Below are positions 17,665 to 26,245 of a DNA stretch of 34,080 nucleotides, piece by piece. A program made the position numbers and the translations under genes. The DNA lies in the IMG/VR virus record IMGVR_UViG_648276671_000020, positions 1 to 34,080 of that record; one strand, given 5' to 3'. Position 1 is the stretch's first letter. The number at the start of each line of letters is the position of its first letter. Below the pieces are notes generated by a model. It saw nothing but the letters and a program-made list of their open reading frames with translations, ran no database searches and was not told where the DNA came from. This stretch comes from a virus. Its lineage: Duplodnaviria; Heunggongvirae; Uroviricota; Caudoviricetes.

Positions 17665-17730
17665 TTGTGCCATTCCCGACACCTCATCGTTACATTGCCG
17701 CCGGTATGACCCGGCGGCATCCTTCCCGTT

Positions 17731-20155: not shown

Positions 20156-22366
20156 ATGAGCACAAAATTCAGAACCGTTATCACCACTGCCGGTGCAGCA
20201 AAGCTGGCAGCGGCAACCGCACCGGGAGGGCGGAAGGTCAACATTACCACGATGGCCGTCGGGGATGGCGGGGGTAAATTGCCTGTCCCGGATGCCGGAC
20301 AGACCGGGCTTATCCATGAAGTCTGGCGACATGCGCTGAACAAAATCAGCCAGGACAAACGAAACAGTAATTATATTATCGCAGAGCTGGTTATTCCGCC
20401 GGAGGTGGGCGGTTTCTGGATGCGTGAGCTTGGCCTGTACGATGATGCGGGAACGTTAATTGCCGTGGCGAACATGGCCGAAAGTTATAAGCCTGCCCTT
20501 GCCGAAGGCTCAGGGCGTTCGCAGACCTGCCGCATGGTCATCATCGTCAGCAGTGTGGCCTCAGTGGAGCTGACTATCGACACCACAACGGTGATGGCAA
20601 CGCAGGATTACGTTGATGACAAGATTGCAGAGCATGAACAGTCACGACGTCACCCGGACGCCTCGCTGACCGCAAAAGGTTTTACTCAGTTAAGCAGTGC
20701 GACCAACAGTACGTCTGAAACGCTCGCCGCAACGCCGAAAGCGGTAAAGGCCGCATATGACCTTGCTAACGGGAAATATACTGCGCAGGATGCCACTACG
20801 GCGCGAAAAGGCCTTGTTCAGCTCAGTAGCGCCACCAACAGCGATTCTGAAACGCTTGCGGCAACGCCAAAGGCGGTAAAGGCCGCATATGACCTTGCTA
20901 ACGGGAAATACACTGCACAGGACGCCACCACCGCGCGAAAAGGCCTTGTTCAGCTCAGTAGCGCCACCAACAGCGACTCTGAAACGCTTGCGGCAACACC
21001 AAAGGCGGTTAAGACAGCGTATGACCTTGCTAACGGGAAATACACTGCACAGGATGCCACCACAGCGCGAAAAGGTCTTGTCCAGCTAAGTAGTGCCATC
21101 AACAGCGATTCTGAAACGCTGGCCGCAACACCAAAAGCGGTGAAGTCTGCCTATGACAACGCTGAAAAACGTCTTCAGAAAGATCAGAACGGTGCGGATA
21201 TTCCGGGAAAGGATACCTTCACGAAAAATATCGGTGCCTGTCGTGCTTATAGCGGTGCTTTGAGCACTGAAGCCGGAAACTGGACAACCGCGCAGTTTAT
21301 TGACTGGCTAGAGTCTCAGGGAGCCTTTAATCATCCCTACTGGATGTGCAAGTGTTCCTGGTCATACGGTAATAACAAAATTATTACCGATACTGACTGT
21401 GGGACGATTCATCTTGCAGGTTGCGTGATTGAGGTTATGGGCGTTAAAGCAGCAATGACCATTCGTGTGACCACTCCGAGTACATCAAGCAGTGGTGGTA
21501 CCACCAGTGCGCAATTCACGTATATCAATCACGGAGCTGATTATGCGCCGGGCTGGCGACGCGACTACAATACGAAAAATAAGCAACCGGCTTTTGCATT
21601 AGGGAAAACAGGAAATACGGTTGCAAATAATAAAGCAGTAGGATGGAACTGGGACAGTGGTGCTTATTGTGCACAGGATGGCGGAGCATCAAAAATGGTG
21701 CTGCATTTTTACACGGGTGAGGGAAGTTGTCCGGCAATGCAGTTTCTTGTGGATTATAAAAACAGGGGGATTTTTTACAGGTCGGCACGTGATGGGTATG
21801 GATTTGAGGCTGACTGGTCAGAGTTTTATACCACATCACGAAAGCCAACACCTGCGGATATTCTTGCTCTGGCATTATCAGGCGGAAGCATGTCAGGCAG
21901 CATAAAATTTATCAATGATGCCTTCCTGATTTGGGAAAGAAACACTGACTGGGCGAAAATTGGATTTAAAAATGATTCAGATGCTGATTCTGACTCATTC
22001 ATGTGGTTTGAAACTGGTGATAATGGCAATGAATATTTTAAATGGCGCATCAGGTCTGGCAGCACAACAAAAGATCTGATGACGCTTAAGTCTGATGCAC
22101 TACGAGTTACCGGGCAGGTGATACCATCAAATTTCAGCAATTTTGACTCCCGCTATGTCAGGGATCTCCGGCTTGGTGGTGCCGCCACATACAAACCTGC
22201 GAACAATGGCATGACATGGACACATCAGGCACCGTCCGGGTGTGTATATACCGGCATTATTGTTCAGGATACCGGCTCAAACTCTGCCGATAACATTGGT
22301 GGCGTATATTACAGACCGGTGCAGAAATACATTAACGGGACATGGTACAACGTGGCGCAGGTATAA
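20156..22366 (+). CDS. H: Tail fiber protein
   Basis: 736 aa. N-terminal region conserved P2-H-like, internal 44-aa tandem repeats, AT-richer C-terminal domain (CGTIHLAGC..., Trp/Tyr-rich). Confidence 0.9.
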   Translation: MSTKFRTVITTAGAAKLAAATAPGGRKVNITTMAVGDGGGKLPVPDAGQTGLIHEVWRHALNKISQDKRNSNYIIAELVIPPEVGGFWMRELGLYDDAGTLIAVANMAESYKPALAEGSGRSQTCRMVIIVSSVASVELTIDTTTVMATQDYVDDKIAEHEQSRRHPDASLTAKGFTQLSSATNSTSETLAATPKAVKAAYDLANGKYTAQDATTARKGLVQLSSATNSDSETLAATPKAVKAAYDLANGKYTAQDATTARKGLVQLSSATNSDSETLAATPKAVKTAYDLANGKYTAQDATTARKGLVQLSSAINSDSETLAATPKAVKSAYDNAEKRLQKDQNGADIPGKDTFTKNIGACRAYSGALSTEAGNWTTAQFIDWLESQGAFNHPYWMCKCSWSYGNNKIITDTDCGTIHLAGCVIEVMGVKAAMTIRVTTPSTSSSGGTTSAQFTYINHGADYAPGWRRDYNTKNKQPAFALGKTGNTVANNKAVGWNWDSGAYCAQDGGASKMVLHFYTGEGSCPAMQFLVDYKNRGIFYRSARDGYGFEADWSEFYTTSRKPTPADILALALSGGSMSGSIKFINDAFLIWERNTDWAKIGFKNDSDADSDSFMWFETGDNGNEYFKWRIRSGSTTKDLMTLKSDALRVTGQVIPSNFSNFDSRYVRDLRLGGAATYKPANNGMTWTHQAPSGCVYTGIIVQDTGSNSADNIGGVYYRPVQKYINGTWYNVAQV
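20676..21165 (+). repeat. Tandem 132-bp in-frame coding repeats (about 3.7 copies) within H
   Basis: The unit ARKGLVQLSSATNSDSETLAATPKAVKAAYDLANGKYTAQDATT is repeated with few substitutions; unit boundaries at about 20804, 20936 and 21068. Confidence 0.85.
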
Positions 22367-22369
22367 TTT

Positions 22370-22897
22370 ATGCAGCATTTGATAAATATAACGGCAGGTA
22401 ATCCAAAAACGGTTGAACAATATCAATTGACAAAGGACTTTGATGTTGTCTGGTTTTTTTCAGAAGATGGTAAGAACTGGTACGAAGAACAAAAGTATTT
22501 TGCTGATGACACGATAAAAATAGCGTACGACAAAGATAATATCATCCGCTATGTGGAAAAGGATGTGACAGCTATCAGACCAGATGGATTAAGTGTGGTT
22601 GAAGTGGCGGATATTACTGCTAACCGACGGGCGGATATTTCAGGGAACTGGATGTTTAAGGACGGCAAAGTGATTAAACGCATTTATACGGCAGAGGAAT
22701 TGCAGCAGCAGGCAGAAAACCGGAAAGCCAGACTTCTTGCAGATGCTGAATCCGTAATTTTGCCGCTGGAACGCGCTGTCAGGCTGAATATGGCGACGGA
22801 TGAGGAGCGCACACGACTGGAAGCATGGGAACTCTACAGCGTTCTGGTCAGTCGTGTGGATCCTGCAAATCCCGAATGGCCGGAAATGCCACAATAA
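22370..22897 (+). CDS. G: Tail fiber assembly chaperone
   Basis: 175 aa immediately after H, the size and position of P2 gpG. Confidence 0.85.
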
Positions 22898-22931
22898 GTT
22901 GTATGAGCTCTGGTGTGAGCTTACATATCTA

Positions 22932-22973
22932 TGGCACAGAGTAAAGCCTGATCTGACAGTCCGCTCTGTGCCA
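22932..22973. repeat. 10-bp perfect inverted repeat (TGGCACAGAG ... CTCTGTGCCA) with 22-nt loop
   Basis: Seen directly, about 35 bp after the G stop. No T-run, so not a canonical intrinsic terminator. Confidence 0.4.
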
Positions 22974-23272
22974 AGATCGGACCTTAGGCTTCAGTAATTT
23001 GGTTAGCACAACCCCTTTGATAAACATACAGCTACAGTATTGCTTTTATAAGGAGCGTAGTTTCAATAGGACACCCCAAACGTTAGTCGGGAAAAGCCGA
23101 CTGAAAAAAAACTTGTGTGGACAAGTAGTGTCCATTTAATGCCATTTTTAGATTAAAATGTGCCATTTTGAGGGTATTCTTAAACGTGCATAACGTTCTG
23201 ATTTATCATACACAGAGCCTTATCATTTGAAACCATTCCGATGTACATCAAACAATGATTACAAGAGAAATT

Positions 23273-24790
23273 ATGACACCGCCAACCAAAATTGATACAT
23301 CAAGTCTACTTACCATATTGGGCGTTATTGCTGCTGTATGGGCCCTTATTACGCCAAACGCTCGACTACGTTTAAGGTTCTGCCTAGCGTGGTGGGATTG
23401 GGTAATTGTTGGGTTTGCATTCTTACTAAGCAATTATTTGGTGTTTGCACCGGCTTTAAAATCACTAGACTTATATTTTAGCTTTGGCCCCTGGAAATGG
23501 GGATTAGATAGTTCAAGTGCCGTATACCTGATATCACTCGCAGTTGCTATTTACATTTTATTTCGCTTAAAAAACCCTAAACTCTCAATTGGAAGAACAG
23601 GGATATTTCTAGAGTTAGTGGAAAATTTGCACCTTACTAAACGATACGACGATCTGGCACAATTGTTGGCACCTCAACTAGAAAAATTAATATCAATAAT
23701 TGATAGACCTGTGAAGAATCGACTTTGTGATAAGATAGCTAACAATCTCCGCATCTCTAATCGCGAGACAGCTGCTGAACATGCACATGAAGCATTGTTA
23801 AATATTGTCTCATCACCTGAACTTACCAATCACTTTGCACTTGCGCACCCATCCCTCTGCCTTGAGTTAATCAAGATCGAGCCAATAGTTCGTTCTGACT
23901 TTACTTCTAATTTTATCAGTGCATTACTTGGTTCACCTAACAGTCGTCTATATGTTGAGCTTAAAAATAATCTTAACGTTAGTCGAGGACATCGTTTATT
24001 GATTCCAAAAAACAACCGTATATTACATTTTTTCTTTTCCAATGCTAAGTTTGCAGCTGATTTAGCAATATACCGTGATATCGGTGACTATCTCTACTGG
24101 AGGTTAGATGAAGATGAAAAAATTATTGCTGCACTTAATAAGTCTTTAGGTTCCTATTACGATGCTTCAAAATATAAATGTCCTATTTACTCAGGTGTCA
24201 CGCTGTTTGAAATTATGGTTCATGAAGGTATTCACCAGGGTCTTCAGGATCATTTATGGTTGCATTACTATTCATATTTTGCAAGGAAAATTATAAAGAA
24301 TATGAATAGGCAATCGGATGAATATAGTGGTGAATGGGAAACACCTTTTCACTTCCTTCTCTGTCATTTATTTAGCGTCGCTACAGATTGGGCAGAACAA
24401 TGCGAATGGATAGATGAAAAGGAGATTCCTCAAGAAAATAAAGAAATAGATAATTTCGATCTTCATTATATTTCAAAAGAGGCTACCAAATTACTTGGTG
24501 CTATGCTGCAGTTGGTTATGCCTAATAAAAAACTCACCTTGAAATCTAAAAAACATATTCTTGATATAGTTGTATCTTGTTATATTAGATTGAAAAGGAA
24601 TAAAAAATTAAAAGACGTCGCTGACTCATTATTAATTTTCACCACTAGAGGCGAAGGTAATTCAGCACCGCCGCATTATCGTAGAGAACTTCTAGAAATA
24701 TTCAATACCCTTGATGATTATCGATTAAGAACTGATGCCCCGGAATTCCGAGCAGCTATAGAGTCTGCTATTCAAGCAAGGCCGAATTAG
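23273..24790 (+). CDS. Membrane-anchored protein, function unknown (3 N-terminal TM helices plus large soluble domain)
   Basis: Track ORF 23255..24790; ATG at 23273 is an alternative start. Hydrophobic segments near residues 15-33, 43-66 and 85-103, then about 400 aa I cannot place in any family. AT-rich; sits at the P2 Z/fun cargo locus. Confidence 0.65.
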   Translation: MTPPTKIDTSSLLTILGVIAAVWALITPNARLRLRFCLAWWDWVIVGFAFLLSNYLVFAPALKSLDLYFSFGPWKWGLDSSSAVYLISLAVAIYILFRLKNPKLSIGRTGIFLELVENLHLTKRYDDLAQLLAPQLEKLISIIDRPVKNRLCDKIANNLRISNRETAAEHAHEALLNIVSSPELTNHFALAHPSLCLELIKIEPIVRSDFTSNFISALLGSPNSRLYVELKNNLNVSRGHRLLIPKNNRILHFFFSNAKFAADLAIYRDIGDYLYWRLDEDEKIIAALNKSLGSYYDASKYKCPIYSGVTLFEIMVHEGIHQGLQDHLWLHYYSYFARKIIKNMNRQSDEYSGEWETPFHFLLCHLFSVATDWAEQCEWIDEKEIPQENKEIDNFDLHYISKEATKLLGAMLQLVMPNKKLTLKSKKHILDIVVSCYIRLKRNKKLKDVADSLLIFTTRGEGNSAPPHYRRELLEIFNTLDDYRLRTDAPEFRAAIESAIQARPN

Positions 24791-25064
24791 GTAAATCAAC
24801 CACCTGCATAGCGGGTGGTTTAGACATAGACCTCTAAGCATGCCTGAAAGCAGAGGTACCTCTAAGTTTCGATGTCTAGGTGTTGATCGGCTGTAATCTG
24901 GTAACCAGGTCAAGCTTAAAATTTTCTCAACATAAACAAGTAGTATTTCAAATATTGAACCATACTGACTCCCCCACTTTTTATAAGATTATGGAAATTT
25001 TTTGTACCAGTAAGTTCGAAAATTAGTGTTGTTCTCATCAGTCGTTATGAATAATTTTGAACTT

Positions 25065-25128
25065 CCGCTCCTCGCTCACAGCGGACCCTCAACTCAGCCA
25101 GCAATGTCCGCTGCTTGCCAGGAGCGGA
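25065..25128. other. Nested stem-loop between convergent cargo genes
   Basis: Outer arms TCCGCTCC/GGAGCGGA and inner arms CAGCGGAC/GTCCGCTG, each 8 bp, separated by 7-nt internal loops with a 20-nt apical loop. GC-rich inside an AT-rich island. Confidence 0.4.
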
Positions 25129-25165
25129 CGTAGTTTAATCTCTACTATGTTAATAAGTAATGATA

Positions 25166-25918
25166 TTAAATAAACTCATCATCAAGAAAGCCTGTTGATA
25201 AAAAGTTCTGAATGTGAAGATAAAAAGAATAACGTGTATCTTCATTTTTTTTCTTCGATGTGTTGAGTTCCGGCTTGAGATTGTAAATAAGATGAGACTC
25301 TATAAAGTCAAGTAATTCTATAGCTAATGATGTCGGACTAATCCAATCCAGTGAAATATAGTCTTTTCCATCATAAAACCATGGGGTGGCTCTATATATC
25401 CTCTTTTTCATATTATTATATTTGGGATCTAGCAACTTTAAGGCAGCCGAGTGACCGCCAATAAACCTTTTGGAGTTAACGGTTTTTCCGACATAAACAA
25501 TGTGTTCATTGGTATCATCCATATCAGAGCATGATATTAAATAGATTGGTAATGAGGGTTTGGGAGGAATGCCGATTTTTTTTTCGATTATCACCCTCTC
25601 CTTTTCATGAATAAAAATGGGAAGCTTTCCATTAAATTCACTCTTCACATTCCCCAAGAATGAATCTGTATTTTTCCTAGCTTCATGCAGTCCGACCCAG
25701 TTAAGACTATTGACCTGATGGAGAGGACAGCATTCCTGTATTGATAACCAAGCCTCCCAATCACTTGATGGATTATCACTACAGTTTTGGCCCGAAAATC
25801 TGTGTGAAAGGAATTTTCTCCCCTCGAACCAGGCTTGCAACGGAATATATATATCTGAAGTGTTCTGCTCGACTTCAATTAATGGACTATTAGTATCCAA
25901 ATTTATGCCTCCTTTCAT
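25166..25918 (-). CDS. Hypothetical protein with a C-terminal GIY-YIG-like nuclease motif
   Basis: 250 aa. PIYLISCSDMDDTNEHIVYVGKTVNSKRF resembles the GIY-X(10-15)-YVGK..KR core of GIY-YIG domains (compare UvrC VIYVGKAKDLKKR as I recall it). GGAGG-type RBS before the ATG; AT-rich. Confidence 0.55.
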   Translation of the reverse strand: MKGGINLDTNSPLIEVEQNTSDIYIPLQAWFEGRKFLSHRFSGQNCSDNPSSDWEAWLSIQECCPLHQVNSLNWVGLHEARKNTDSFLGNVKSEFNGKLPIFIHEKERVIIEKKIGIPPKPSLPIYLISCSDMDDTNEHIVYVGKTVNSKRFIGGHSAALKLLDPKYNNMKKRIYRATPWFYDGKDYISLDWISPTSLAIELLDFIESHLIYNLKPELNTSKKKNEDTRYSFYLHIQNFLSTGFLDDEFI

Positions 25919-26218
25919 TAAGTATTTGCATAAAAATATCTAAAAATAAGAAATTCTTTAATTAAGATTATAAGTTAAATATAAGTACCAATGAAGCTTT
26001 GAATGATTTCGCATCAATAAATTAATTCTAACACAATACCATATAATAACGAAAAATGTCACTGCTTGGTCGTTGAGGATATGACATTGCAATTAAAGAG
26101 AAAACCTTAACACACTATCTATAACGTCCGTTTCTCGCTCAAAGCAGACTGTCAGATTTGATAGCATTTGGGCTATGTAAATTGTCAGGCGGAAAATGAG
26201 TGAGTACAAATCAGGACA

Positions 26219-26245
26219 GGCGGGCGAATTGCCCGCCTTTTCTTT
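26219..26245 (+). terminator. Intrinsic terminator upstream of the FI late promoter region
   Basis: Hairpin GGCGGGC-GAATT-GCCCGCC followed by TTTTCTTT on the plus strand. Confidence 0.45.

Follow-up and report, generated by a model that had tools for sequence, protein, structure and literature searches.

A modular tail fibre with a variable repeat shaft and its assembly chaperone in a P2-like prophage

The 34,080-nucleotide stretch analysed here (IMG/VR record IMGVR_UViG_648276671_000020, positions 1 to 34,080; hereafter the window) is a P2-like (Peduovirus) prophage, and the locus of interest consists of its genes H and G, which encode the tail-fibre protein and the tail-fibre assembly protein. 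From R/S to H, and again from FI onward, the window shares 95-99% nucleotide (nt) identity with P2, fiAA91-ss, NC_070905 and a prophage in Escherichia coli NZ_CP151161.1. H and G form the end of the V-W-J-I-H-G late operon, which is colinear from V to G with P2, fiAA91-ss and NC_070905. H sits between the baseplate gene I and the assembly gene G, as the position of a P2-type gpH demands, and the start codon of G lies 4 nt past the stop codon of H, the fibre-adjacent position of a Tfa protein. In the aligned P2-like genomes, the counterparts of the two genes are annotated as tail fibre and tail-fibre assembly protein.

Three Pfam families mark out the two proteins. PF12571, an N-terminal tail-collar fibre domain, matches H residues 1-151 (197.5 bits against a cut-off of 23, E 1.5e-58), PF03406 ("phage tail fibre repeat") matches four stretches of H (265 bits, E 1e-80), and PF02413 (Caudo_TAP) matches G residues 40-175 (118 bits against a cut-off of 22.1). 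Over its full length, the H allele shares 96.8% nt identity with the fibre gene of NC_070905, and the value rises to 99.3% for the fibre gene of E. coli NZ_CP151161.1. We consider it very likely that H and G of this prophage are a modular tail fibre and its assembly chaperone, with modules that are exchanged and a repeat number that varies. By analogy with its homologues, H would form a trimeric virion fibre that mediates adsorption. The features of the locus and of its surroundings are collected in Table 1.

Table 1. Features of the H/G locus and of the adjoining region, in window coordinates (ORF, open reading frame; aa, amino acids)
Feature	Position	Strand	Basis
Gene H, tail-fibre protein, 736 aa	20156..22366	+	ORF; PF12571; four PF03406 stretches; nt identity to annotated fibre genes
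N-terminal domain of H, aa 1-173, presumed baseplate attachment	20156..20674	+	PF12571; family conservation; GC 0.565, like the rest of the late operon
Shaft repeat array, 132-nt (44-aa) units, three full units and the core of a fourth	20675..21157	+	Tandem Repeats Finder; PF03406; protein register
Body resembling the variable part of Mu S' and of P1 S', aa 328-571; AT-rich region starts	21137..21868	+	Identity to Mu Sv', P1 Sv', P7 Sv
Conserved joint module, aa 571-656, motif NTDWAKIGFKND...GDNGNEYFKW	21866..22123	+	Identity to Mu S, P2 H
Distal tip module, aa 651-736, inherited with G	22106..22366	+	Right-hand homology block; identity to Mu S, P2 H, phiTE
Gene G, tail-fibre assembly protein, 175 aa	22370..22897	+	ORF; PF02413; identity to Mu U, P2 G
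Conserved flank after G, ending in hairpin element; right limit of P2-like homology	22898..22986	+	Alignments of relatives
orf511	23255-24790	+	ORF
Hairpin element GTCCGCT-N10-AGCGGAC (imperfect palindrome)	22959-22982, 25063-25086, 25106-25129, 26126-26149	n/a	Conserved sequence

The window was aligned to 76 relatives, namely 72 viral contigs, three phages and one E. coli prophage, all chosen by a near-identical H N-terminus (173 residues, 98-100% identical). In 80 viral contigs, the N-terminal domain shows 98-100% aa identity. Behind this near-invariant N-terminus, the 76 relatives carry at least 12 types of H C-terminus and two main types of G, each counted at 90% identity. Both features that a preliminary description of this DNA had singled out for comparison, the repeat number and the C-terminal type, thus vary behind a conserved N-terminus.

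Homology between the window and its relatives breaks and resumes at discrete positions. The left block, which begins at the H start codon, ends at 20881 (P2 type), at 21025 (copy-number variants), at 21145-21157 (the end of the repeat array), at 21201-21213, or at 21531 or 21835, the latter two being internal joints of the body that follows the repeats. On the right, homology begins again either at 22106-22145, with 92-96% identity, or not before 22307-22322, with 77-86%. The same discrete set of joints recurs across the 76 relatives. P2 itself is 96% identical to the window from gene V to nt 20881, which falls inside repeat 2 and thus inside the array, and regains this identity only at 26123. 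Between these two positions only two islands align to P2, at 78-82% identity (21939-22102 and 22312-22986, the latter including G). Neither uniform guanine-cytosine (GC) content nor an H/G pair that is P2-like throughout is seen, the identity to P2 breaking at 20881. The region is a chain of at least five independently reassorting segments. Of the horizontally exchanged host-range cassette proposed in the preliminary description, the exchange is borne out by the C-terminal types, and the single cassette gives way to this chain.

The segment behind the repeats is homologous to fibre parts of Mu, P1 and P7. Its identity is 71% to Mu Sv' over 246 aa (E 2e-129) and reaches 79% with P1 Sv', with P7 Sv in between (74%). 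A phmmer search matched it to the PDB entry 8ju3, the alternative Mu fibre S' of the G(-) orientation, with 396 bits, residues 334-571 being 71% identical. The joint module that follows corresponds to Mu S 182-267 (64% identity) and to P2 H 391-471 (68%). It matches residues 184-267 of PDB 5yvq_A and, weakly, the Pfam family Gp34_trimer, and its GC content at third codon positions (GC3) is the lowest within H (0.34). The tip is 52% identical to Mu S 427-502 and 48% to P2 H 592-669, and it also matches the short tail fibre of Pectobacterium phage phiTE at its C-terminal end (9cuy_c). Solved homologues cover H residues 334-736, and modules of H are shared with Mu, P1 and P7 as well as with Pectobacterium, Cronobacter and Aeromonas phages.

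On the finished virion, the N-terminal domain would dock the fibre on the baseplate, with the shaft, the S'-like body, the joint and the tip following in series. Body and tip may be swapped by homologous or short-homology recombination at the conserved joints, which would shift the host range, and the repeat array may be one more crossover point. Potential exchange partners would be other P2-like phages, Mu-like and P1-like phages, and unrelated phages. In the P2-like phage P88, host range was altered by swapping 31 residues near the fibre C-terminus (residues 716-746; PMC5285337). The fibres of P88 and pro147 (hypervariable region HR2, PMC5285337) belong to the same family as H, and the swapped stretch is the region that travels with G here. 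They differ from H in having the P2/Wphi C-terminal type instead of the S'-like type.

The kinship of the body with the invertible Sv' segments of Mu and P1 (71% and 79% identity), together with the tandem repeats in H, could point to variability that is programmed in the element itself, through DNA inversion of the Mu and P1 kind, a diversity-generating retroelement or phase variation of the repeats. We give this explanation next to no chance. The ORFs that follow G are orf511 and orf250, not an inverted second set of fibre and chaperone genes or an invertase, and neither of the two contains a Pfam recombinase domain. The sole inverted repeat of at least 30 nt in the whole window brackets the cargo island behind G, and none flanks the variable part of H. 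As for a retroelement, the window holds no second copy of the H 3' end that could act as a template repeat, and no reverse-transcriptase gene is listed near H/G in the annotated relatives. Because the 132-nt repeat unit is a multiple of three, a change in copy number never disturbs the reading frame and cannot act as a frame switch. As far as sequence can show, programmed variation is excluded, and the exchange of modules between phages stands as the preferred source of the H diversity.

The comparison of modules also raises the question of how many receptor-binding parts the fibre has. Parts that are alternatives in Mu, namely the S' body on the one hand and the S-type joint and tip with the U-type chaperone on the other, are joined in one polypeptide here. 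It is conceivable, although we think it rather unlikely, that H carries two receptor-binding modules in series, the internal Mu S'/P1 S' body and a Mu S/P2-type tip with its U-type Tfa. If so, specificities that Mu uses alternatively by inversion would be combined in a single polypeptide, with a dual or broadened host range as the outcome, and the number of 44-residue repeats would tune the reach of the modules.

G is 72% identical to Mu U (PDB 5yvq_B, E 1e-81), 74% to P2 G and 56% to Mu U'. Its N-terminal half (22370-22639) is variable and AT-rich, its C-terminal half (22640-22897) conserved. Identity to P2 G amounts to 67% in the former and 82% in the latter, and the two main G types differ from each other in the same manner (68% and 84% identity), which is the two-domain layout of Tfa proteins. 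This contrast between the halves, in identity as well as in GC content, matches the modular Tfa of Mu, in which a variable N-terminal domain binds the fibre tip and the C-terminal domain is conserved (PMC9608196). Mu Tfa stays on the fibre (PMC10579305). If G works like its homologue in the solved Mu S-U complex, its variable N-terminal domain would bind the tip and its conserved C-terminal domain would drive trimerisation from the fibre C-terminus. The identity to Mu U further suggests that G is needed for the folding of the fibre and is bound at its tip, and G probably remains on the finished fibre.

How far the pairing between fibre and chaperone extends can be read from the relatives. The G type tracks the last 20 residues of H (VYYRPVQ... 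versus A[VI]FRPIQ...). The right-hand homology block starts at 22106, 22139 or 22145 in relatives with G type 0, and not before 22307-22322 where G is of type 1. The S'-like body does not predict the G type. Moreover, fibres of 772 and 764 aa fall into one C-terminal cluster at 90% identity, yet they have different tips and different G types. The matched pair is thus G and the last approximately 85 residues of H only. The preliminary description had spoken of a chaperone matching the C-terminal domain, and this is correct for the tip but not for the rest of the C-terminal region. Tip and G probably move together because both must fit each other.

The shaft of the fibre (H residues 174-334) is built of repeats. 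Tandem Repeats Finder reports a period of 132 with 3.4 copies at 20714-21157 (score 685), and a separate repeat search finds three copies in register, starting at 20674. In the register of the protein, the units start at nt 20675, 20807, 20939 and 21071, the fourth being represented by its first approximately 29 aa only, so that the earlier count of nearly four 44-aa repeats holds. Units 1-3 are identical at 40-43 of 44 residues in the protein and 80-94% identical in the DNA. Any two of them differ at 8-26 of the 132 positions (6-20%), and approximately 50 positions separate them from unit 4. The differences fall mostly on third codon positions (16/22, 19/26 and 7/8). Purifying selection therefore acts on every unit, and the units are distinguishable from one another. 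H was rightly described as longer than its P2 counterpart (736 versus 669 aa). P2 H has two repeat cores, and the two extra units add 88 aa here, while the post-repeat region is 21 aa shorter than that of P2, leaving a net difference of 67 aa.

The spacing of the repeat cores is exactly 44 aa in 77 of 77 sequences examined. Two copies were counted in 13 of them, three in two (confirmed by protein length), four in about 53 and five in nine, these classes being motif counts in sequences picked for near-identity of the N-terminus and not a population sample. Four copies, as in the window, are the commonest state among the relatives, and the two copies of P2 are a minority state. Alleles of the same C-terminal type are found that lie apart by exact multiples of 44 aa (692/736, 621/709 and 772/816 aa). 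Such whole-unit pairs in three C-terminal types indicate that units are gained and lost in nature, and the repeats are, as had been anticipated, open to changes in copy number. The longest exact tract between neighbouring units is 44 nt, which should suffice for homologous recombination or slippage, given the minimal homology lengths in E. coli. We infer that the array changes by whole in-frame units through one of these two processes, the recombination being unequal. The repeat number presumably changes the length of the fibre, and it may also affect its reach.

Near-identical tandem units can also arise or vanish during assembly, and the preliminary description had warned of this. Exact tracts of up to 44 nt in 132-nt tandem units could in principle confuse an assembly from very short reads. 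With 8-26 differences among units 1-3 and approximately 50 to unit 4, however, reads of at least 100 nt place the units uniquely. In the complete E. coli chromosome NZ_CP151161.1 the array aligns without gaps at 99.3% identity, other complete genomes likewise contain this 1101-nt span, and the H of NC_070905 likewise has 736 aa and four copies. Together with the prevalence of four copies among the relatives, this makes collapse or expansion of units during assembly a very improbable origin of the four-copy array. The warning is not supported, since independent complete genomes carry the same array and its units differ at 6-20% of their bases.

The base composition of the fibre region stands apart from that of the structural genes, in which GC is 0.54-0.61 and GC3 0.59-0.71. 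For H residues 334-736 the values are 0.464 and 0.44, with the drop from approximately 0.57 beginning at about 21150, and for G residues 1-90 they are 0.385 and 0.37. The remainder of G (residues 91-175) has a GC content of 0.512. A windowed comparison placed both stretches below every structural-gene window of equal size, with 1608 windows compared for H 334-736 (z = -6.4) and 1796 for G 1-90 (z = -6.2). The second half of G (residues 91-175; z = -1.8) is no outlier, and neither is the repeat array (z = -1.2). The AT-rich stretch therefore comprises the C-terminal 55% of H, not the C-terminal third as first described, and the first half of G, not the whole gene.

A similar drop is seen in P2 (H 291-669, GC 0.468; G 1-90, GC 0.378) and in 14 of 14 combinations of fibre and chaperone types among the relatives, with 0.44-0.48 for the C-terminal part of H and 0.38-0.40 for G 1-90. 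The fibre genes of Mu have a GC content of 0.43-0.47 (Sv 0.45, Sv' 0.47) versus 0.54 for the Mu baseplate gene. The low GC, synonymous sites included, is the composition of a shared pool of fibre modules and not a mark of recent arrival. AT-richness thus dates no import into this prophage, and low GC in this region should not be taken as evidence of recent transfer, since it is common to the whole family.

Such constancy could also mean that an amino-acid or functional constraint on fibre proteins, and not horizontal exchange, keeps the H C-terminus and G low in GC. Values of 0.44-0.48 in every fibre type, and the low GC of P2 and Mu, fit a stable property without recent import. Against this, GC3 drops just as strongly, from 0.59-0.71 in the structural genes to 0.44 (H 334-736) and 0.37 (G 1-90), the onset of the drop coincides with the commonest joints (21145-21213), and the modules are demonstrably common to Mu, P1, P7 and the Pectobacterium, Cronobacter and Aeromonas phages named above. 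We therefore regard constraint as a quite improbable explanation and retain that of a shared module pool.

Several points weigh against reading H and G as a fibre whose exchanged modules and variable repeats shape host range. The copy classes come from the selected set of sequences described above. The receptor, the roles of the modules and the effect of the repeat number are deduced from homologues. The S'-like body is internal, and its distance from the C-terminus exceeds that in Mu S' by approximately 90 residues. Finally, the family-wide low GC, found in P2, in Mu and in all types, dates no transfer into the window prophage.

Compared with P2 (NC_001895), the two genes have the same operon position, H residues 1-251 are 96% identical, and the PF03406 repeat, the joint motif and the last 14 residues of H are shared. 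The G proteins are of equal length (175 aa), and the GC drop affects the H C-terminus and the first half of G in both phages. P2 gpH differs in having two repeat cores versus four here, a post-repeat body unrelated to the S'-like one, and a stretch of approximately 120 residues ahead of the tip that has no counterpart here, and P2 gpG belongs to the other main G type. The same H/G allele, in the same module order, occurs in "Peduovirus P2" NC_070905/OU784750, in fiAA91-ss (NC_022750) and in the NZ_CP151161.1 prophage, with nt identities across H and G of 96.8%, 96.2% and 99.3%, respectively. Unlike the window, all three carry other cargo between G and FI, and fiAA91-ss has one repeat unit fewer (692-aa H). 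The corresponding proteins of Mu are S/U in the G(+) and S'/U' in the G(-) orientation. The body is homologous to the Sv' of Mu and P1 (with S' of P1/P7 as a further counterpart), H 571-656 and 654-734 match Mu S, and the constant part of Mu S also has one PF03406 repeat. Mu differs in its invertible segment and invertase, which are missing here, and in its N-terminal baseplate domain.

The mosaicism of H and G is correct but ordinary, and it is already known, because near-identical H/G pairs are in GenBank, the repeat is a curated Pfam family, and the exchange of P2 fibres was described in 1992. Haggard-Ljungquist, Halling and Calendar (1992, J Bacteriol 174:1462) reportedly found segments of the P2 tail fibre exchanged with Mu, P1, lambda and T-even phages, and are said to have related G to Mu U and U'. 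The value of our findings on H and G is practical rather than conceptual. The map of modules and joints at residue level (20881, 21145-21213, 21531, 21835, 22106-22145 and 22307-22322) is useful for the design of chimeric P2 fibres or tailocins, in which G should be swapped together with the last approximately 85 residues of H.

A more interesting lead is the cargo island behind G, with two uncharacterised genes in a known variable locus. In relatives with DNA past G, homology to the window ends at 22970-22986, except in two IMG/VR contigs (L071 and L074) that have the same cargo. The island (22987-26121, GC 0.37) contains two convergent ORFs, orf511 and orf250, at the position of fun(Z) in P2, which we take to be one of the two variable anti-phage loci of P2-like phages. 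According to PMC9122126, anti-phage genes occupy two variable loci of these phages. As cargo, the closest H/G relatives have a restriction endonuclease, fun(Z), orf20 or two hypothetical genes. The complete pair of orf511 and orf250 was found in only six of 5426 complete E. coli genomes, one of which holds a heavily degraded P2 remnant that kept the cargo and lost H.

In spite of lying side by side, fibre modules and cargo assort independently of each other. In L071 and L074 the same cargo pair lies behind a different fibre (740-aa H, G type 1), and in E. coli NZ_CP151161.1 the H/G allele of the window is followed by a restriction endonuclease.

Searched as single sequences against Pfam, PADLOC and NCBIfam, orf511 and orf250 gave no match. 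On reading of its sequence, the N-terminus of orf511 is predicted to span the membrane. The remainder is all-helical in a confident AlphaFold model (predicted local distance difference test, pLDDT, 87; predicted template modelling score, pTM, 0.80), with no meaningful fold match in the PDB. Its 165 homologues, all annotated as "hypothetical", come from Enterobacterales, Pseudomonas, Burkholderia and Delftia, and the family is found across Proteobacteria in integrase-bearing islands and in Klebsiella phage-plasmids. We consider orf511 a candidate for a single-gene anti-phage or abortive-infection protein. A partnership between orf511 and orf250 was considered and rejected. In Pseudomonas, an orf511 homologue has a convergent neighbour that is unrelated to orf250, and orf511 also occurs without orf250; the two are therefore treated as separate cargo genes.

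A hairpin element marks the borders of the cargo. One copy follows the end of G by 62 nt, two lie between the cargo genes, and one precedes FI at a distance of 216 nt. Across 64 related loci, 107 copies fall within the G-FI gaps, at the same fixed offsets, versus three copies in 744 kb elsewhere, an approximately 200-fold enrichment. In E. coli NDM6, an orf511 module in a non-P2 island is bounded by two copies of the hairpin, and homology to the window breaks inside both. Lacking a T-run, the element does not look like a terminator, and it may serve as a cassette boundary or as a site of recombination. The title of Nilsson et al. (2004) suggests that site-specific recombination had been proposed for these loci before, and that work may already describe the element. 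According to a 2026 study of such hotspots, the recombination processes at these loci still need to be elucidated (PMC13586616). A scan of genome contigs for GTCCGCT-N4-GC-N4-AGCGGAC returned at least 120 loci, mostly in GC-rich Alphaproteobacteria and with no G/FI homologue among the matches listed; the pattern is too unspecific, and the scan therefore says nothing on the distribution of the hairpin. The whole window gave no match to Rfam at the gathering threshold. A different, strong terminator-like hairpin lies between the right cargo boundary and FI (26218-26238, plus strand). Of its nine pairs, seven are G-C, and a T-run follows. Its probable role is to shield the F operon from transcription that runs on out of the V operon and the cargo.

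Two further places in the window differ from P2 or are variable among P2-like phages. Neither the window nor fiAA91-ss has the nonessential orf30, an opposite-strand gene between S and V in P2, and the spacing between S and V is only approximately 65 nt (17665-17730). The other variable locus, between the replication gene A and the portal gene Q (old and tin in P2), spans 5775-8488 in the window and is AT-rich (GC 0.39-0.43). An ORF at 6910-7395 in this locus encodes an M78 peptidase (IrrE/ImmA-like) domain and matches the PADLOC capP model (E 3e-28), and it is followed by an unannotated ORF of 209 aa (7463-8092).

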